Shown: positions 22,889 through 62,004, counted from the first letter of the stretch. The stretch is 64,000 nucleotides of DNA from Fibrobacterota bacterium (GCA_947466585.1 CANIEU010000005.1:64412-128411); one strand, 5' to 3'. A program made the numbers and translations. The notes: generated by a model from the letters alone, not told the origin.

Positions 22889-24073
22889 TCACTCGAAATG
22901 AAGGGTCGGCTTGAAGGAGGGACTTTCGAGCCGCGCGGCTTCGGCCTGGGTTTCTTTCCACGCCGCGTGCTCACATCCGGCCCTTAGTTTCTCCCGCAAT
23001 TCCTCAAGGCCGATTTTCTTTTCGGCCGAGATGAAGGTCGCATCGGAGTAATGTGCGCGCAGTCCTTCGAGCTGTTCGGGTTCGAGCCGGTCGATTTTGT
23101 TGAAAACCGTCAGGCGCGGCGTTTCGGTGATTCCGAGTTCGGTGAGAATGCGGGCCGTGATTTCCATTTGTTCTTCGAAGTCGGGAGACGAGGCATCCAC
23201 GACGTTCAGAATGTGGGTGGCCTGCGCCGCCACGCTGAGCGTGCTTTTAAAGGAGGTAACCAAGCCGACCGGAAGTTTGCGGATGAACCCCACCGTATCC
23301 GAGAGCACCGCTTTTTGGCTGCCGCCGAGCCAGAGTTGGCGTGTCGTGGGATCGAGCGTGGCGAAAAGTTTGTCGACCGCTTCTACGCCCGCCTGTGTCA
23401 GCGCGTTCATCAAGGTCGATTTGCCCGCGTTGGTGTAGCCCACCAGCGCCGCGTGAAAGGTGGGACGGCGACGGTCGCGTTGCGAGGTCCGGATGCTTTC
23501 GACTTTTTGGAGTTTCTTTTTCAGGTCGGCGATGCGTTTGCGGATCGCCCTTCGGTCGGTTTCGAGTTGGGTCTCACCGGGTCCGCGCATGCCGATGCCG
23601 ACACCGCCCGCTTGCCGCGAAAGGTGCGTCCAGGCGCGGGTGAGGCGGGGGAGCATGTATTCGAGTTGCGCAACCTCGACCTGGATCTTGGCTTCGGCTG
23701 TGCGCGCATGCTTGGCGAAGATATCGAGGATGATACCGCTGCGATCCATGATCTTCACCTTGAGGATCTCTTCAAGCTTTTTGATCTGGGATCCGGAAAG
23801 ATCTTCGTCGAACAGGACGATATCGGCTTCGTATTGTTCCACTAAGGCGGCGACTTCACGGGCCTTGCCTTCGCCGATCATGGTGGTGGCGTCAAAGGAC
23901 GGGCGGCGTTGCAGCACGCGATCGACGACCACCGCACCGGCGGTTTCAGCAAGCCGTTCCAATTCTTCCAAATGTTCGCGGGCTTGCCGCGGTGTGACCT
24001 CGCGCGTGGCCACGCCGACGAGGATGGCTTTTTCGGGGCCTTTGCGAGTTTCTTTTTTCGAGTCGTTTTCCAT
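22889..24073 (-). CDS. hflX: GTPase HflX
   Basis: 394 aa counted from ATG 24071-24073. HflX N-terminal domain plus G-domain (VGYTNAGKSTL, DTVGF, NKID). Confidence 0.85.
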   Translation of the reverse strand: MENDSKKETRKGPEKAILVGVATREVTPRQAREHLEELERLAETAGAVVVDRVLQRRPSFDATTMIGEGKAREVAALVEQYEADIVLFDEDLSGSQIKKLEEILKVKIMDRSGIILDIFAKHARTAEAKIQVEVAQLEYMLPRLTRAWTHLSRQAGGVGIGMRGPGETQLETDRRAIRKRIADLKKKLQKVESIRTSQRDRRRPTFHAALVGYTNAGKSTLMNALTQAGVEAVDKLFATLDPTTRQLWLGGSQKAVLSDTVGFIRKLPVGLVTSFKSTLSVAAQATHILNVVDASSPDFEEQMEITARILTELGITETPRLTVFNKIDRLEPEQLEGLRAHYSDATFISAEKKIGLEELREKLRAGCEHAAWKETQAEAARLESPSFKPTLHFE

Positions 24074-24107
24074 GGAGTGCGAAAGGTACAAAGCAGGGGG
24101 GCTCACC

Positions 24108-24728
24108 TCAGTCCAGTCGCACCGCTTTGTGTGTTACTGAGGAAGTTTTCCCGTTGGCCGACGCAACAATACGCACGGTGTACATTCCGCTCGAGACCCG
24201 GTGGCCGTTTTGGTCTTTGCCGTCCCAAGTCAATTCGCGAATGTCCGCAGGTGGATCGAGCCCTTGGCGCCAAACCTTTCGGCCTGAAAGGTCAGAAAGG
24301 GTTACCGATACCTATTCGGTGTTCGCATCCAAGACAGGAAGCGGCAACACATACTGCATAGCATAGCCGGTCACTCGAATCGAAAAGGATTCCGTTTCGC
24401 CCGGGCCCAATTTGCCAAGCGGTGTAGTGGTCGCGATGCTCACCGCCATGCTATCGGATAAGCCGTTGAAATCGTTGTCCACGATCGCGGCGAACAGGCT
24501 TCCGTTCCAGGCGACATCCTGAATGGCGCGCAAGGTGCCGACGCCCGCATCGCGCTGCGTCCACGTAATTCCGTCCGGGGAGTTGACGAGCGCGCCCCGC
24601 ATGCCGACGGCGACATAAACGCTGCAGTTCCAGCTGACGGCTTTGAATTCCGTTGACCCGTCCAAAACTCCTTGGGCCCTCAACGGCATCGGGTGCATAA
24701 AAAACAGGGACACAAAAAGGAGCGACAT
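24108..24728 (-). pseudogene. small secreted T9SS-cargo-like protein interrupted by an in-frame TAG
   Basis: A signal-peptide ORF (24315-24728, MSLLFVSLFFMHPMPLRAQG...) stops at TAG (24312-24314). The next 68 codons in the same frame (24108-24311) encode a T9SS/FlgD-Ig-like C-terminal domain (VSVTLSDLSGRKV...LTWDGKDQNGHRVSSGMYTVRIVASANGKTSSVTHKAVRLD), ending at TGA 24108-24110. Confidence 0.6.
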
Positions 24729-24970
24729 GAAGCGAACCGAAATCTGGACATTGGAACCAGACAACAGGTTGAATCCGGATATGCGATGACCCGATCGTTG
24801 AAAAATGATAATGAACTAGTTGGGAATAACCCGTCAAAGTTTTTTAATTATCAGATAATGGACAAATTGAAACACGGAAATAAAGGTGTCAATGGGACGT
24901 CATCGCTTCAATAAAAATCTGCTAGCCGGCGCTCTTTAAAAGGGCAGGGTATTCACAAGCCATTGAGAAG

Positions 24971-25090
24971 GCTCGCAATGGCTCGCAATGGCTCGCAATG
25001 GCTCGCAATGGCTCGCAATGGCTCGCAATGGCTCGCGACGACTTGTAATTGATTGTAATGTCTTGTGAAGGTGGGGAATAGCTTGTGATG
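24971..25090. repeat. 10-bp minisatellite (GCTCGCAATG x6.6 plus ~5 decaying copies)
   Basis: Perfect head-to-tail copies span 24971-25036. They are followed by GCTCGCGACG, ACTTGTAATT, GATTGTAATG, TCTTGTGAAG, and a more diverged copy (GCTTGTGATG) after a short gap, to about 25090. Confidence 0.9.
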
Positions 25091-25108
25091 CCTATCCCGG
25101 AACCTGAA

Positions 25109-26893
25109 CTATTCCCACTCGATCGTGCCGGGTGGCTTGTGCGTCACATCGTATAACAACGCACCTGCACCGAGCGCTCTCAATTCCTTCCACAGCGCAT
25201 CGAGCAAGGCGAAAGGTAGTTCCGCAAAACGCGCCGTCATGGCCTCGCTCGAGGAAACGGGCCGCAACACGAAAACCGGTCCGCCGCCCTTGGTCAACGG
25301 CAGAAGTACGACCGGCATTTGCCAAACAGCCGCATACAGGTTCTCGCGTTTGAGCGCCGCCGTGCAAAGAGCGTCGGCCTCTCGTAACAGGTTCAGGCTG
25401 TCCGATTCGCAGTACAAGGGGATGGGCGTATAAGCTCCCTCCGCCGCGTGCGTTTCCAGCACGATGCGGTTCACCGCACGCACGCGGTTGAGCACCACGG
25501 TGGCGGTTTCGTCCGCAAGCTTCCATTCCCGGGTGCCCCGGATCAATCCCGGATGCGCGTAGGTGCGGGCATCGCCCTGCACGCCCACGCTCTTGATGGG
25601 TAGAATCTCTCCCGTCAGGCCCGCAGCCGCAAGGATCGGAGCGATCGCAGCGCTGTCTTTTTCCGAAGCTGGTTCGCCATCGCCGTTCGAACAAAGAAGG
25701 CGTACGCCAAGCCCCGGGCCAGGGAAGGGGTGGCGGTCGAGCAACGGATCGGGAATGCCGAGACGGCGACCCAGTTCGCGCACTTCATCCTTGTACAGTT
25801 CCGCAAGGGGCTCTACCACCATGCCTTGCGCCATGAGGTCCAGAATACCCTGCACACGATTGTGGTGGGTCTTGATCACCGCTGCGTGCGCCGTGCCGCC
25901 GCTCTCGATCGTGTCGGGATAAATGGTGCCCTGTGCGAGCATCCACTCGGTCGGGTCCAGATTCAGTTCCGCGATCGCCACATCCTTCACATGCAGGAAG
26001 GTTTCGCCGATCACCTTGCGCTTGGCTTCGGGTTCGGTCAGGCCGAGGAGATTGTCCAAAAAGCGATCGGTTGCATCCGCGATTTTCAGATTATCAAAAC
26101 CTTGCGCATGCATGAACGCGAGTACCTCGGCACTTTCGTCCTTGCGCATCAGACCGTTGTCGATGTGCAGGCCCAGCACGCGGTCGGGGCCGAGCGCGCG
26201 GTTGAGCAGTTCAAACGCCACGGTGGAATCGACTCCGCCGCTGACGAGGAGGAACACCTTCTTGCCTGCGCACTGTTTGCTGAGTTGTTCCTGAATCGTT
26301 TGCACGTAATGATCCATGTTCCAGTCGAACGCGCAGCCGCAGATCGACAGGAAGTTGCGCAGCATCGTTTGCCCTTCGAGGCTGTGCGTCACTTCGGGGT
26401 GGAACTGCATCCCGTAAAACTTGCGGGCGTCGTCACCCACCGCGGCCTGGGCGCAATCGGAGGTCGAACCGATGTTGCGGAAACCGGGAGCGGGGGAGGA
26501 GACCTCGTCGCCGTGGCTCATCCACACAATGCTCTCGGCGGAAATATCACGGAACAGAGCGTGACCAGCCTCGGCACGCAATGCGGCGGGGCCGAACTCG
26601 TGCACCAGACCGCGCTTCACTTCGCCGCCCAAGGTCTTCGCCATCAATTGATGCCCGTAACACAGGCCGAGTACCGGCAATCCGAGCGCGAAGATGCCCA
26701 GCTCGCATTGCGGGGCCCCGGGCTCATACACCGACGACGGACCCCCGGAAAGTATGATTCCCTTGTAACCGACCAATTCTTCAGGTTTTACATGAGCCGG
26801 AACCACTTCCGAGTAAACCCCGAGTTGCCGGATGCGGCGGGCGATGAGGTGGGTGTACTGGCCGCCGAAATCCACAACTGCGATCTTTTCCAT
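25109..26893 (-). CDS. guaA: GMP synthase (glutamine-hydrolysing)
   Basis: 594 aa. GATase domain (CYGHQ) plus ATP-PPase (LLVSGGVDSTV) plus dimerisation domain. Carries an insertion of ~70 aa relative to typical enzymes. Confidence 0.9.
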   Translation of the reverse strand: MEKIAVVDFGGQYTHLIARRIRQLGVYSEVVPAHVKPEELVGYKGIILSGGPSSVYEPGAPQCELGIFALGLPVLGLCYGHQLMAKTLGGEVKRGLVHEFGPAALRAEAGHALFRDISAESIVWMSHGDEVSSPAPGFRNIGSTSDCAQAAVGDDARKFYGMQFHPEVTHSLEGQTMLRNFLSICGCAFDWNMDHYVQTIQEQLSKQCAGKKVFLLVSGGVDSTVAFELLNRALGPDRVLGLHIDNGLMRKDESAEVLAFMHAQGFDNLKIADATDRFLDNLLGLTEPEAKRKVIGETFLHVKDVAIAELNLDPTEWMLAQGTIYPDTIESGGTAHAAVIKTHHNRVQGILDLMAQGMVVEPLAELYKDEVRELGRRLGIPDPLLDRHPFPGPGLGVRLLCSNGDGEPASEKDSAAIAPILAAAGLTGEILPIKSVGVQGDARTYAHPGLIRGTREWKLADETATVVLNRVRAVNRIVLETHAAEGAYTPIPLYCESDSLNLLREADALCTAALKRENLYAAVWQMPVVLLPLTKGGGPVFVLRPVSSSEAMTARFAELPFALLDALWKELRALGAGALLYDVTHKPPGTIEWE

Positions 26894-27316
26894 GGGCGGT
26901 AAAAGTAGCTACGCGGGCGGGATTCTTCGGGGTGGAGATGTGGGATTTACCGGGATTCCCTACGTACATCGCCCCATCGAAAATGCTCAGGGTGAGGCCT
27001 AAATTCAAGTACGCCCGGAACAATGATGTGTTCGGAACCACGGAGCTCGCAATGCCAGAACCACTATCCCCAGACATTCTCCTTCCGAACCTCGCCTCCC
27101 AGGGAGTATCCGATTCGTTTGAGCATATCAGCCGTGGAGCGCACGGACGCTTTGGAATCGAAGAAGAGAGGCTTCGCGGCCGATTCGGGAGATGTTCCAG
27201 ATGCCCAAAACACCCGACGAGATCGCTCGCGACGCCGCCCGGAATACGGAAATCCGCAAAACCGGGGAGAATCTCGGCATCTAGGTTAGCGAAGTTCCGG
27301 GAACGTCCCGTTTTGC

Positions 27317-28798: not shown

Positions 28799-29026
28799 GG
28801 AGGGACAAGGTAGGAAGCTGCGGGGGAAAGCTCCGAATGCGGCGGGGAGCGAACAGGGCCGCCGCGTTGAGAACGGATAGGGAGATCCAGAACGAATCGT
28901 ATGGATGTCCCCCCCCCTCCGAGGTGCAATCACAGGACGGCTGCCACACCGACACCGCATTGGAACGCCATTTGCTCTAAATTGATTGACAATGGCTAAA
29001 AAGGTTCAAACCGGACGGGTTGTCTT

Positions 29027-29064: not shown

Positions 29065-30735
29065 TTGACAAAAATGGCTTTGGTTTTGGTAAAAGTTGTA
29101 GGTAACGAAGGGGCTGCTGTGAAAGATTTTATGGTACACCAGGCCAGAACTCTGGCCGCTCTGACCGAAATCAGCAAGCTGTTCAGTTCCTCCTTGGACT
29201 ATACCGAGGTGGCGAAGCAGTGCCTGTACCTGCTTTCGGACATTCTGGACCTCGAGCGCGGCACCCTTTTGATGCCGACTCCCGACCGTAAATATCTCGC
29301 CATCCGCGCCAGCGTCGGGTTCACGCCCGAAGAAATTCGCGAGGCGGTTTATGAGATCGGTCGTGACTTCGTGGGCAAGGTATATAGTAGCGGCATGCCC
29401 ATGGCGCTGCCCGATGCTGACGACGTGGAAGGCGTTCCGATTCCCAAGGTCAACGCCGATGACTTCAACTTATACCGTATCGGCTTCATCGCCGTGCCGG
29501 TGACTCTCGACGGCCATCCGGTCGGCGTGCTCACCGCGCATCGCACGACCCATTCGACCACCATGGTGGACGAAGACATCAAGGTGATGAAGATCGTGGC
29601 CTCGCTCCTGTCGCAGACCTTGCGCATCGCGGAGATGATCCGCGAAGAGAACAGCCGTCTCGTGCAAGAGAACAAGGAGCTGCACCTCGAACTTGAGGAA
29701 CGCTTCAACCCCGAGAACATGATCGCCGATTCGTCGGCGATGGCGAAAACCTTGGAAATGGTGCGCCGCGTTGCGGGCACCGACGCGACGGTGCTGTTGC
29801 GCGGAGAGAGCGGAACGGGCAAGTCCCTGCTGGCGCGCAGCATCCACTTTTCGAGCCCGCGCAAGCGTGCTCCCTTCGTGATCGTGAACTGCGCCTCGTT
29901 ACCCGCCACCTTGATCGAGAGCGAACTTTTCGGCCACGAGAAGGGCGCCTTCACGGGTGCGTTCATCCAGCGTACGGGCCGCTTCGAAGCGGCCGACGGC
30001 GGCACACTCTTCCTCGATGAAATCGGTGAGCTGCCCATGGAGACGCAGGCCAAGCTGCTGCGCGTGATCCAGGACCGAACCTTCGAACGCGTGGGTTCTT
30101 CCAAGACCATGACGGTGAACGTGCGTTTGATCTGCGCGACCAACGCGAATCTGGAACAGCAAATCCGCGACAAAGAGTTCCGCGAAGATCTGTATTACCG
30201 CCTGATGGTGGTGCCGGTGCAGGTTCCGCCGCTGCGCACGCGTCGCGAAGACATCTTGCCGCTGTGCAACTACTTCCTTAAGAAGTTCACCACCAAGTAC
30301 GGCAAGCGCGTTTCGATTTCGCGCGAGGTGATGGAGTTTCTCGAAAGCTACACGTGGCCCGGCAACGTGCGCGAATTGGAGAACACCATCGAACGCACGG
30401 TGGTGCTGGCAGGCGGGGAGACCCTGACGCCGCGCGACATTCCCATTCTGGAGACCTTGGTGGCCGCACCGGCGGCGCCTTTTGTGAGCGCCATGCCGGA
30501 GGTTTCTGAACCGGCGCCCGCACCGGGGATCGTGACCTTCGGGCCGATGCAAGGCCGCGCGCGCGAGCGCCAGCCCTACGAGCGCGTACCACTGCGGGAG
30601 AAGGATATCCGTGAGGCGATGCACAATGCCGGAGGCATTCAGACGCACGCGGCACGGATGCTCGGCGTGTCGCTGCGCCAACTGCGCTACGCGCTCACGC
30701 GCTTCGAGATCAAGGCGACGGAGTTTAAGTATTAG
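29065..30735 (+). CDS. sigma-54-dependent transcriptional activator with N-terminal GAF domain (NifA/FhlA-like)
   Basis: GAF domain, AAA+ sigma-54 activation domain ([29 protein letters not shown]) and a C-terminal Fis-type HTH. Alternative start at 29131. Confidence 0.85.
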
Positions 30736-30860
30736 GGAAGGGGTGGGTAAGAGTGATTAGGGGATAGCAACACAAGACACGTTTGATTGCACCTCACTCG
30801 TCGCTATCCACTATCCACTATTCACTATTCACTATCCACTTTTTCCTACTTCCTACTTCT
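30734..30860. repeat. heptamer-array element: degenerate AGKGRWK units then (ATYCACT)x5 and (TACTTCY)x2
   Basis: ATCCACT at 30806-30812 and 30813-30819, ATTCACT at 30820-30826 and 30827-30833, ATCCACT at 30834-30840, then TTTTCC-TACTTCC-TACTTCT. Upstream, overlapping the TAG stop of the regulator, sits a degenerate inverted partner (AGGGAAG, AGTGATT, AGGGGAT, approximating AGTGGAT). Confidence 0.7.
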
Positions 30861-33307: not shown

Positions 33308-33448
33308 AGGTAGGAACAGTAGGTAGTCGGTAGACGGTAGTAGGTAGAGAACGCGAGGATGGCGGGTTTCCAAGACTGCCGAATTCCCCAAATCCATACC
33401 GAATGAAGCCCTCTACCGTCTACCGACTACCTACCACCGTCTACTATA
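33308..33448. repeat. heptamer-array inverted repeat (GTAGGTA-GTCGGTA-GACGGTA ... TACCGTC-TACCGAC-TACCTAC)
   Basis: The 21-mer GTAGGTAGTCGGTAGACGGTA (33319-33339) has its exact reverse complement at 33414-33434. The 74-nt spacer lies in the divergent cbiX/gcvT promoter region. Additional degenerate 7-mers flank both arms. Confidence 0.9.
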
Positions 33449-33457
33449 TTCCCCGCC

Positions 33458-39354: not shown

Positions 39355-39378
39355 GCTGAGGTCTCCGGGTCCGTGTGA

Positions 39379-39420
39379 ATTTCGGTGGAACTAGGTGAAT
39401 CCGGTCGAATTTCAGGTGCG
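39379..39420. promoter_or_regulatory. 10/11-bp periodic direct repeats (GTGAATTTCGG / GTGAATCCGG / TCGAATTTCAG) just upstream of the lipoprotein gene
   Basis: Three to four copies spaced one helical turn apart, 25-65 nt upstream of the minus-strand ATG at 39354. Confidence 0.4.
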
Positions 39421-39604
39421 GGTTTTGGGGCATATAATAGCTTCACGGGCGAATTCCCCAAAAAGGGGGGGCGAAGTGTATCCCCTCGATCCGGCTGTTT
39501 CCGTATCCCGGGGGCTCACGGGGTGTTACCTTCGACCTTCTACCGCTGCGTAGCCTTTCCGGCAACCCAGCAATCTCAGAAATCCTAGGAATCCCAGAAA
39601 TCTT

Positions 39605-51029: not shown

Positions 51030-51047
51030 CTTTACCCGTACTCCTAG

Positions 51048-51104
51048 TCGTACTTCGTACTCGTAATCGATCTTCGTTTCGTAAAAACCGAGTACGAGTA
51101 CGAT
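51048..51104. repeat. heptamer-array hairpin (TCGTACT)x2 ... (AGTACGA)x2 between fabD and fabG
   Basis: TCGTACTTCGTACTCG (51048-51063) pairs with CGAGTACGAGTACGA (51089-51103), giving a 15-bp stem with a one-nt bulge and a 25-nt loop. Confidence 0.85.
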
Positions 51105-51126
51105 AAATTAGAGAGAGGATTTACAC

Positions 51127-51871: not shown

Positions 51872-52001
51872 ACAGCGGACAGCGGACAGCGGACAGCTTA
51901 CAGCCAACTCCCGGACAAAACCTGCTTCAAGGCAGGCTTCCGGGGGAAAGTTTTTGTTGTTCACTGTTCACTGTACGCTTTACGCTGTAAGCTCATCGCT
52001 C
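51872..52001. repeat. heptamer-array element (KACAGCS)x5 ... terminator-like hairpin ... (CRCTKTW)x6 in the fabG-acpP spacer
   Basis: TACAGCG-GACAGCG-GACAGCG-GACAGCT-TACAGCC spans 51872-51906. A spacer containing CCCGGA..TCCGGG / CCTGCTTCAAGGCAGG hairpins is followed by GTTTTTGTT. Degenerate inverse units (CACTGTT, CACTGTA, CGCTTTA, CGCTGTA...) span 51960-52001, ending 37 nt before the acpP ATG. Confidence 0.8.
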
Positions 52002-56451: not shown

Positions 56452-56480
56452 TTATGGAAGCAGAAACCGGTGCAGCCCGA

Positions 56481-58131
<1,651 letters not shown>

Positions 58132-60945: not shown

Positions 60946-60951
60946 CCTGTG

Positions 60952-61114
60952 GAAATGAGAAATGAGAATTGAGAAATGAGAAATGAGAAATGAGAAATGA
61001 AGGTTTGGCATTCGGAGGGGCATTCGACCAAGCTTCAAAAATCAGGAAATAATGGGGAATCCGCTGGCGGTGTTCCTCTTTTTTTCTCATTTCTCATTTC
61101 TCAATTCTCATTTC
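60952..61114. repeat. heptamer-array inverted element: (GAAATGA)2-GAATTGA-(GAAATGA)4 ... (TCATTTC)2-TCAATTC-TCATTTC
   Basis: Left array 60952-61000, right array 61087-61114, 86-nt spacer. Even the variant unit (GAATTGA / TCAATTC) is mirrored. Starts 7 nt after the fabF stop. Confidence 0.9.
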
Positions 61115-62004
61115 GGTTTCTCGCCTACTCTCTGGTCTCCTTCACTTCCCTTTCGTTCGCCGCATCGAACACCGTCATCACGGTGCCGGGCGATCAGGGC
61201 AAACCGAAGGCGCTCGAAATCAGCCCGGCGCTGCGCGATTACTGCGGCCTGATCTACGCCTGCGGGCTCAAGGTGCGCGCGGGTACCTGCCCCGCACCCA
61301 AGGACCTCGGGCCGCCCGCGCCGTTTTCGCCGCAGGGCGAACGTTGCGTCGAAGCCCGCGAGCTGGAAACGCGCGGTTTGCGCGCGGATAACCCGGAGTA
61401 TGGATTCCGGCTGTTCCGGTTGTTGGGATTCGAATACCGTGTCGTTTATCACATTCCCGATACGGTGGAAATTTCACGCGCGCGTCTCGAGTATTTACTG
61501 AACGATATTCCGCTGTCGGCCAAACTGATCTCTCATTACCGGCAGACCCCCTACAAGGCCGAGTATGTGAACGCCGCGCACACCCAATTCAAAGGCGAGA
61601 AGGGGACACGCTTGCGCGGCGAGGCCCGTTTGATATCCGGATCCTACGCGGAACGTCGTCTCATTTATCTGGGAACCGGCGTGGCCGAAATCGCCTTCTG
61701 GACGCTGGTCGGCCCGGGCATGATGGATTTCAATTACCGCGAGCTTCCGGCGACAGGCAAAATTCCGGAGCGCATCGTGTACGATCTCAAGGTGGTGGTG
61801 TTTCCCGGAAACGGCATGATCAACTCCATCATGAATCTGGGACTGTTCCGCAACGTGGTCTCCGACAAGGTGCGCGGCGTACTGACCGACATCACCGAGA
61901 CTGCGAAATTGTTGAAGGCCGATCAGGGCAAACAGCTCTTGAAAAACATGGAATGGTCGGCAGACGAGCGGAAGAAAATCGAAACTTTGTTGAAGCTGGA
62001 GTGA
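60997..62004 (+). CDS. hypothetical protein (start uncertain)
   Basis: 335-aa six-frame ORF. Its first ~40 codons are translation of the heptamer arrays (FFSFLISQFSFRF), so the true start is probably downstream of ~61120. The remaining ~290 aa show good codon bias and end 2 nt before trmH. Confidence 0.45.
   Translation: MKVWHSEGHSTKLQKSGNNGESAGGVPLFFSFLISQFSFRFLAYSLVSFTSLSFAASNTVITVPGDQGKPKALEISPALRDYCGLIYACGLKVRAGTCPAPKDLGPPAPFSPQGERCVEARELETRGLRADNPEYGFRLFRLLGFEYRVVYHIPDTVEISRARLEYLLNDIPLSAKLISHYRQTPYKAEYVNAAHTQFKGEKGTRLRGEARLISGSYAERRLIYLGTGVAEIAFWTLVGPGMMDFNYRELPATGKIPERIVYDLKVVVFPGNGMINSIMNLGLFRNVVSDKVRGVLTDITETAKLLKADQGKQLLKNMEWSADERKKIETLLKLE

Follow-up and report, generated by a model that had tools for sequence, protein, structure and literature searches.

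Contingency loci are classically found where repeats precede genes for secreted proteins. In an uncultured member of the Fibrobacterota, a perfect array of 10-bp units follows guaA on the minus strand and precedes, by about 200 nt, an interrupted gene for a secreted protein. The question that this locus raises is whether the copy number of the array varies and, if it does, whether the variation acts on a promoter. The original prediction, which placed the array correctly with respect to both genes, proposed that it does so, either by phase-variable promoter spacing or through cooperative binding of a regulator to units phased along the DNA. We analysed the array within a stretch of 64,000 nucleotides (GCA_947466585.1, CANIEU010000005.1:64412-128411), hereafter called the window, whose first letter is position 1. 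Loci and contigs that need to be told apart are designated by L numbers.

Host and gene context of the array

The host is an uncultured freshwater bacterium of the Fibrobacteria. At least two of the sequencing runs with matching DNA come from the Rimov reservoir; these runs, ERR3761204 and ERR3761205, contain identical sequence and belong to the Rimov reservoir metagenomes reported in PMC10244341. The GuaA protein is 82-89% identical to those of the best-matching GTDB species, which are Fibrobacteria, and 87% identical to the closest cluster in a large database.

The genes that flank the array are all on the minus strand (Table 1). The stop codon of guaA is the TAG at 25111-25109, and the core of the array starts 73 nt downstream of it. 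An AT-rich spacer, with a GC content of 40-41% vs ~60% for the window, separates the array from a small orphan ORF, which starts at TTG 24764 or at ATG 24728, with the array 206-242 nt upstream. The ORF product has no match in Pfam, and a search of 5.8 billion proteins for homologues, meant to date the insertion, retrieved the protein itself only. The 67 in-frame codons beyond its stop codon are the cut-off end of the same gene. The gene is thus interrupted as had been proposed, by an in-frame TAG followed by a FlgD_ig tail. Its description as T9SS cargo is only plausible, because the tail scores 17.3 against the T9SS sorting domain TIGR04183, below the cutoff of 23. The in-frame TAG is identical in all assemblies, and the small gene (24111-24728) appears from its sequence to be either a young pseudogene or a candidate for read-through.

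On the gene strand, no terminator-like site was found between guaA and the ORF (24765-25108). The GC-rich stem-loop with a direct U tract that characterizes intrinsic terminators is not present at the array; reading the sequence directly, we found the closest run of Ts (CCCTTTT) to begin ~12 nt past the stem, with its four Ts ~15 nt past it. The spacer also harbours a perfect 13-nt palindrome, ATTATCTGATAAT, at 24847-24859, between a perfect TTGACA (24887-24892) and the -35/-10-like pair. This palindrome is a possible regulator site.

Translation starts have a peculiarity of their own. Start codons are preceded by a pyrimidine- or C-rich tract (e.g. CTTTCCCCCCATGG) with no Shine-Dalgarno sequence. 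Such tracts are found in the window at 26893-26915 and ~24073-24095 (minus strand), and also before the guaA or hflX starts of L008, L009, L031 and L032. Several tandem arrays end right at these tracts.

Table 1. Features of the decamer locus, of the repeat-armed hairpins of the window and of the guaA junctions of relatives. Coordinates are window positions; the last four lines concern loci of relatives.
Feature	Position	Strand	Description
hflX (GTPase)	22889..24073	-	Pfam GTP-bdg_N, GTP-bdg_M, MMR_HSR1
FlgD Ig-like C-terminal tail, 67 in-frame codons past TAG	24111..24311	-	PF13860 (FlgD_ig) 35.2 bits, cutoff 27
Orphan ORF, 138 aa	24312..24728	-	signal-peptide-like N-terminus, one Asp-box-like motif (SPDGITW), ends at in-frame TAG
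AT-rich spacer, 185 nt	24765..24949	-	holds a single sigma-70-like site and a 13-nt palindrome
Sigma-70-like site	-35 TTGACG 24837-24832; -10 CATTAT 24813-24808	-	consensus match only; 1 site vs 0.6 expected in promoter scan
Short inverted arm	24950..24969	-	+ strand TATTCACAAGCCATTGAGAA, gene-sense CAAUGGCUUGUGA; complementary to array units; inverted repeats I1-I9
Perfect array core	24970..25036	-	+ strand (GGCTCGCAAT)x6.7; gene-sense (CATTGCGAGC)x6 + partial unit
Decayed in-register decamers, guaA side	25037..25089	-	GACTTGTAAT, TGATTGTAAT, GTCTTGTGAA, GGTGGGGAAT, AGCTTGTGAT
guaA (GMP synthase, 594 aa)	25109..26893	-	Pfam GATase 1.4e-40, GMP_synt_C 2.9e-17
Repeat-armed hairpin	30752-30767 with 30804-30840
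Repeat-armed hairpin	33318-33349 with 33407-33449
Looser 9-mer pair	~39370-39420 with 39566-39602
Repeat-armed hairpin	51033-51069 with 51087-51106
Repeat-armed hairpin (fabG-acpP)	51872-51897 with 51964-51989
Repeat-armed hairpin	56477-56509 with 56564-56597
Repeat-armed hairpin	60949-61003 with 61079-61119
L008 post-guaA hairpin			~27-bp stem, CATCACAG-type units
L009 post-guaA array	seven nt past stop codon		(GTTATGA)x3
L013 post-guaA arrays			(GCTCAAT)x2, 22-mer x2, (TTCATTC)x4.9
L032 post-guaA arrays			(GGGTGGTGGGGATT)x3, then (GGGTTGT)x3

A perfect core, a decayed flank and an inverted arm

Tandem Repeats Finder (TRF) assigned to the core of the array a period of 10, 6.7 copies, 100% matches and a score of 134, the highest in the window. 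This 67-nt perfectly periodic run is the sole source of repeated 31-mers in the 64 kb. Its head-to-tail organization, with a unit in the 5-11-nt range and a length greater than expected by chance, is that of a VNTR or long simple sequence repeat. The array lies in no ORF, and no ORF of at least 40 aa spans it, which rules out a coding repeat.

On the guaA side, the periodicity continues in degenerate form. The in-register decamers at 25030-25089 match the unit at 8, 7, 6, 5, 6 and 6 of 10 positions, and the five decamers at 25040-25089 together reach 30 of 50 matches, vs a mean of 13 and a maximum of 27 in a null distribution drawn from all window positions. Most of their mismatches are transitions. 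These decayed decamers are probably an older array, from which the core would have been amplified. The original description of a minisatellite with a homogenised core and a decaying edge is therefore borne out, with the decay restricted to one side; the opposite side of the core is occupied by an inverted degenerate unit.

This inverted arm is complementary to the perfect units over 11 nt (91%) and to decayed units over 13 nt and 12 nt (92%). Taken alone it is weakly significant, at ~0.014 per position. It amounts to ~1.7 units, making the two arms of the inverted repeat very unequal.

A solo perfect copy of the decamer, GCTCGCAATG, which had also been pointed out, is indeed present at 27045-27054 and proved to be a chance match: allowing at most one mismatch, we counted 5 matches outside the array in the whole window, vs 7.7 +/- 2.6 expected. 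The window holds no further copies above chance level, and hence no recurring candidate operator.

Copy number differs between near-identical genomes

We gathered the identical genome from many public assemblies by exact-protein look-ups and compared the sequences by BLASTN. The matching contigs jointly cover window positions 19079-64000. Over up to 45 kb, four of them are 100.000% identical to the window and another (L022) 99.996%. Across all the other assemblies, no more than three single-base differences from the window were seen (27129, 34025 and 51980), and the sole length difference in ~45 kb resides in the decamer array, which has 3.7 copies elsewhere vs 6.7 in the window. The shorter allele, with three full units, is shorter by 30 bp. 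It was found on seven contigs and in at least six independent assemblies (ERZ27280169, ERZ27277814, ERZ27263727, ERZ27263765, ERZ28612979 and GCA_947475575.1). Eight other tandem-array sites have the same length in every contig that spans them, consistent with an instability that grows with the number of perfect copies.

The way in which assemblies break at the array provided a second line of evidence. Seven Logan contigs, built at k=31, stop after exactly 30 periodic nucleotides at the array (in ERR12084923, ERR12084924, ERR3761204, ERR3761205, SRR6787038 and SRR6787039, and on the opposite side of the array in ERR12084924). In a de Bruijn simulation, a 30-nt tail arose whenever an allele of at least four full units was present, and a pure three-unit sample assembled straight through. 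As modelled in this way, alleles of at least 4.7 copies would be present in the seven Logan datasets. Furthermore, contig ends at the array are duplicated over 55 nt (L023); in the scaffold of ERZ28612979 they overlap by 55 nt across a gap of 100 Ns, as expected from a branch in a k=55 graph.

Because there are 3.7-copy contigs on the one hand and Logan breaks that need at least 4.7 copies on the other, at least two alleles must be present even if the window is disregarded, in apparently one natural population, and there are probably more than two. The evidence for these alleles is at the level of assemblies and of graph-break logic, not of reads. At that level, the length polymorphism anticipated in the original prediction was found in otherwise identical DNA, as befits a VNTR, and the array changes far faster than the sequence around it.

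We consider it very unlikely that the copy-number difference is an artefact, with the 3.7-copy contigs collapsed or the window over-expanded and the real array monomorphic. MEGAHIT and SPAdes both use a k within 29-37. The 37-nt periodic run of the shorter allele is the shortest traversal consistent with such k values, all the 3.7-copy records are short-read assemblies, and a scan of JGI metagenomes with 2.7 units gave no further allele. However, unitig construction does not create collapsed paths, and of the final k values, 141 is larger than the array and 55 nearly spans it. In addition, the 3.7-copy allele is present with both its unique flanks in MEGAHIT-type (k141) contigs, in a scaffolded assembly (the one with 55-nt overlaps) and in an NCBI MAG, and the Logan breaks require longer alleles.

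The JGI scan returned one unrelated contig, Ga0115013_10145508 (L024), which carries at 1030-1160 a degenerate array of GTTGCGAGCC/CATTGCGAGC-type decamers in a different context. Its decamers are alike by chance or convergence. Viral contigs did not contain the decamer array.

Some Logan contigs of ERR12084923 stop at other arrays as well. L020 ends at the last base of a 30-nt perfect TTCATCA run (56566-56595), and L003 breaks off after 30 nt of the CTATCCA array (30804-30833). These ends hint at minor length alleles at the TTCATCA and CTATCCA arrays too, though all consensus assemblies agree there.

The guaA-hflX junction in related Fibrobacteria

The decamer array is absent from all the relatives examined. 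In six of them (L007, L010, L011, L012, L016 and L031), hflX lies 0-60 nt past guaA, and the ~1-kb spacer of the window, with its array and its broken ORF, is therefore species-specific in these comparisons. No intermediate states of the array were recovered, because the nearest guaA relative, at 87% identity, is itself devoid of it.

At the guaA junctions of four other relatives (L008, L009, L013 and L032), we found other short arrays or, in L008, a hairpin built from repeats (Table 1). Homology of the CATCACAG units of the L008 hairpin with the CATCACAAGC unit of the window was considered and rejected, the match being too short to claim it.

Repeat-armed hairpins across the window and in relatives

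The decamer array is one of many. The window contains 12 arrays with a period of 6-11 and at least three copies, i.e. 19 per 100 kb, vs two weak arrays, both coding, in a 50-kb control from E. coli. In their common layout, an array and inverted copies of its unit flank a unique centre of 20-130 nt. When we scanned the window with probes of two units, against a background of ~50-260 matched nt per 64 kb, an inverted partner within 200 nt was detected at all six heptamer or hexamer sites and a separate direct partner at none of the six. The resulting hairpins, with stems of ~20-35 bp and minimum free energies of -25 to -76 kcal/mol, occur between convergent, divergent and co-oriented genes. We used the strand asymmetry of the folding of the heptamer hairpins as a test for selection at the RNA level, and it revealed no consistent direction.

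In this lineage the unit differs from site to site (examples are GGTAGAC, GAAATGA, TACTCG and ACAGCGG), and a consensus unit of the kind shared genome-wide in Xanthomonas was not found in the window. Similar hairpins are present in relatives, at other or orthologous junctions (L009 1297-1472, L011 3451-3511, L013 3128-3338 and L014 1538-1732), and at a given gene junction they turn over from species to species. In L011, a variant unit in one arm is mirrored in the other (TTAGGAC TTAGGAC TTGGGGC TTAGG / CCTAAG CCCCAAG TCCTAAG TCC), giving a perfect stem of ~22 bp. Such mirroring of unit variants between arms would imply either templated correction from arm to arm or selection on the stem as RNA or DNA.

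The centre of the fabG-acpP hairpin (51905-51955) harbours a nested stem that resembles a classic terminator (CCCGGA...CCTGC-TTCAAG-GCAGG...TCCGGG), with a T run after it, and the repeat arms at this site therefore flank an ordinary terminator or attenuator. One of the three single-base differences mentioned above, a T>G change at 51980 in L020, sits in an arm of this repeat hairpin (51872-51989). Elsewhere in the window, TGGAACGCCATTTGCT at 28961-28976 (+ strand) corresponds to the sigma-54 promoter consensus with one mismatch, ~90 nt upstream of a GAF/sigma-54-activator gene that starts at ~29065-29110.

Origin of the array

We think it probable that the array is a non-coding VNTR that expanded recently from one unit of an older degenerate array, the latter being the longer arm of an imperfect inverted repeat that can form a hairpin. 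According to this explanation, the older decamer array would have occupied the ~1-kb guaA-hflX spacer as the long arm of the inverted repeat, and one of its units would then have been amplified to the perfect core by replication slippage (slipped-strand mispairing) or unequal exchange, which in turn would ease further slippage. Slippage is the accepted mechanism for perfect tandem repeats, and we infer that it operates here. Each perfect 10-bp unit would offer a register for misalignment, and units would therefore be gained and lost far faster than nearby substitutions arise. A recent amplification of the core agrees with the core being the only length-variable array. The locus would thus be a lopsided member of the lineage-wide repeat-armed hairpins, in which about five decayed and six perfect units face a short inverted arm.

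The copy-number variation is probably near-neutral with respect to selection, because a fixed stop codon already truncates the orphan gene, promoter-like sequence lies at a distance from the array, the relatives lack the array and the spacer resembles decaying DNA. Any effect that the array has would be expected to arise through transcribed spacer RNA rather than through promoter geometry.

Possible roles of the copy-number variation

The strongest rival to a near-neutral VNTR is a role at the RNA level, which we regard as possible and rather unlikely. The array would be transcribed, by read-through from guaA or as part of a 5' leader, and would pair with the inverted arm, so that copy number would shift folding, processing (e.g. 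by RNase III) or the extent of read-through to the ORF and hflX. The lack of a terminator-like site on the gene strand from guaA to the ORF is compatible with this proposal, and CAAUGGCUUGUGA and the boundary unit are predicted to form a 13-bp stem with two G.U pairs that are specific to the gene-sense RNA, as they would become C.A mismatches in the antisense RNA. Pairing by hand suggests that internal units may pair with the arm similarly, using G.U pairs. Folding is 3.5 kcal/mol more favourable for the sense strand than for the antisense strand, and the 3.7-copy allele is predicted to form a well-defined hairpin (centroid -33.6 kcal/mol), the 6.7-copy allele a diffuse ensemble (centroid -6.5). 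Within the window lies a gene for RNase III (L019 7717-8469).

There is also a precedent. In the 5'-UTRs of hmw1A and hmw2A of Haemophilus influenzae, (ATCTTTC)n repeats make up the left arm of a hairpin, the right arm being complementary to them, and the hmw1A hairpin is cleaved by RNase III and needed for expansion and contraction of the repeats (PMC12721329). Both systems have a polymorphic tandem repeat upstream of the gene of a secreted or surface protein and repeats that pair with a complementary arm. However, the hmw arrays have a 7-nt unit in at least 11 copies, ~10 of which are paired, they are transcribed and their gene is intact (PMC12721329), whereas in our case the pairing is predicted over 13 bp, with ~1.3 units engaged with the arm at once, transcription of the array is hypothetical and a stop codon interrupts the gene. 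Moreover, the G.U asymmetry hangs on two to three positions, the fold z-scores are modest (-2.3, and -2.65 for the 3.7-copy allele), there are no homologues for covariation, and the gene immediately downstream appears to be a pseudogene. The array could matter for hflX if guaA and hflX belong to one transcript.

An extension of the RNA-level proposal, to which we give little credence, would make all the hairpins intercistronic RNA elements and the decamer array a runaway arm, the copy number of which would tune read-through or processing between guaA and hflX and thereby link GTP synthesis to a GTPase.

A contingency locus acting at the DNA level, the idea of the original prediction, appears improbable. 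Copy number would alter promoter geometry or the phasing of regulator sites and thereby the expression of the secreted-protein gene. The length polymorphism, the position of the array ahead of a gene that has both a signal peptide and a FlgD_ig tail and the AT-rich spacer with its palindrome are all in keeping with it. A 10-bp unit does keep the copies roughly on one helical face, as had been put forward, with a drift of ~17 degrees per unit vs a 10.5-bp helix. However, the array is located outside the single -35/-10-like pair (24837-24808) and not between its hexamers, ending 132 nt upstream of it, and it contains no hexamer pair of its own; phase-variable promoter spacing is thus not borne out. 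The gene that would be switched is not intact, a TAG identical in all assemblies parting its first 138 codons from the FlgD_ig tail, and it is therefore not obvious which gene would benefit from a contingency role. No recurrence of the decamer elsewhere suggests an operator, none of the relatives has the array, and 24700-25110 contains no sigma-54 promoter within two mismatches.

Several further candidates were examined and discarded: a promoter within the repeat (neither strand, when read directly, offers two hexamers at a usable spacing), a sigma-54 promoter or an upstream site for an enhancer-binding protein (TGGCAC-N5-TTGC; no match within two mismatches in 24700-25110, and a GG-to-GC spacing in the array that reads directly as 11, not 12), a replication origin with iterons (no GC-skew switch across the window and 12 DnaA-box matches vs 15.9 expected), a known RNA family (no Rfam match at the gathering score nor at E<=1) and a dispersed repeat such as a REP or MITE (no further copies in the window, none in viral contigs and one unrelated match in a JGI metagenome). 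The array is probably an ordinary slippage-prone repeat, not a promoter switch.

Comparison with other bacterial repeat families

As a slippage-prone VNTR, the array can be compared with several described classes. The long simple sequence repeats of prokaryotes have units of 5-11 nt (Mrazek et al. 2007, as summarised in PMC4679880). The decamer array resembles them in being head-to-tail, non-coding and intergenic, in its length far above chance and in its variable copy number between otherwise identical genomes. According to the same summary, heptamers dominate this class and 10-mers are less common; the present array differs in addition by being embedded in a decayed older array with an inverted arm.

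In Xanthomonas, arrays of the GGGAATC heptamer form 70-75 convergent inverted pairs per genome (Rehm et al. 2015, PMC4692102). They share with the Fibrobacteria sites the intergenic location, a nearby inverted array, the potential to form stem-loops or cruciforms and lengths that differ between related genomes. However, they are built on one G-rich consensus genome-wide, with G-quadruplex potential, unlike the Fibrobacteria sites with their individual units.

The TAACTGA heptamer repeats were described in Beggiatoaceae, cyanobacteria and Bacteroidetes (MacGregor 2015, PMC4679880). Like the arrays described here, they are short intergenic arrays found in some lineages, close relatives lacking them in the orthologous spacers, and contigs break at them. 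They consist of a single conserved heptamer, mostly located directly before start codons, for which a translational role was proposed (PMC4679880), whereas the array of the guaA-hflX spacer consists of site-specific decamers, with the next start codon more than 200 nt away.

Significance

The decamer array can serve as a natural marker of strains in a freshwater bacterium that has not been cultured. It also illustrates cleanly how a repeat can mutate much faster than the DNA around it, having changed by 30 bp in length with no substitutions over ~45 kb. It is also a repeatable cause of assembly breaks, with seven Logan contigs and one scaffold end or gap interrupted at this site. The repeat-armed hairpins, which are unusually abundant in this lineage, are of more interest than the decamer locus itself and deserve follow-up. 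If a census of the whole genome confirms them, the heptamer phenomenon known from Xanthomonas and cyanobacteria would extend to the Fibrobacterota, without a shared consensus unit. If so, the lack of a common unit would point to a structural or mutational cause of these repeats rather than to a sequence-specific binding factor.
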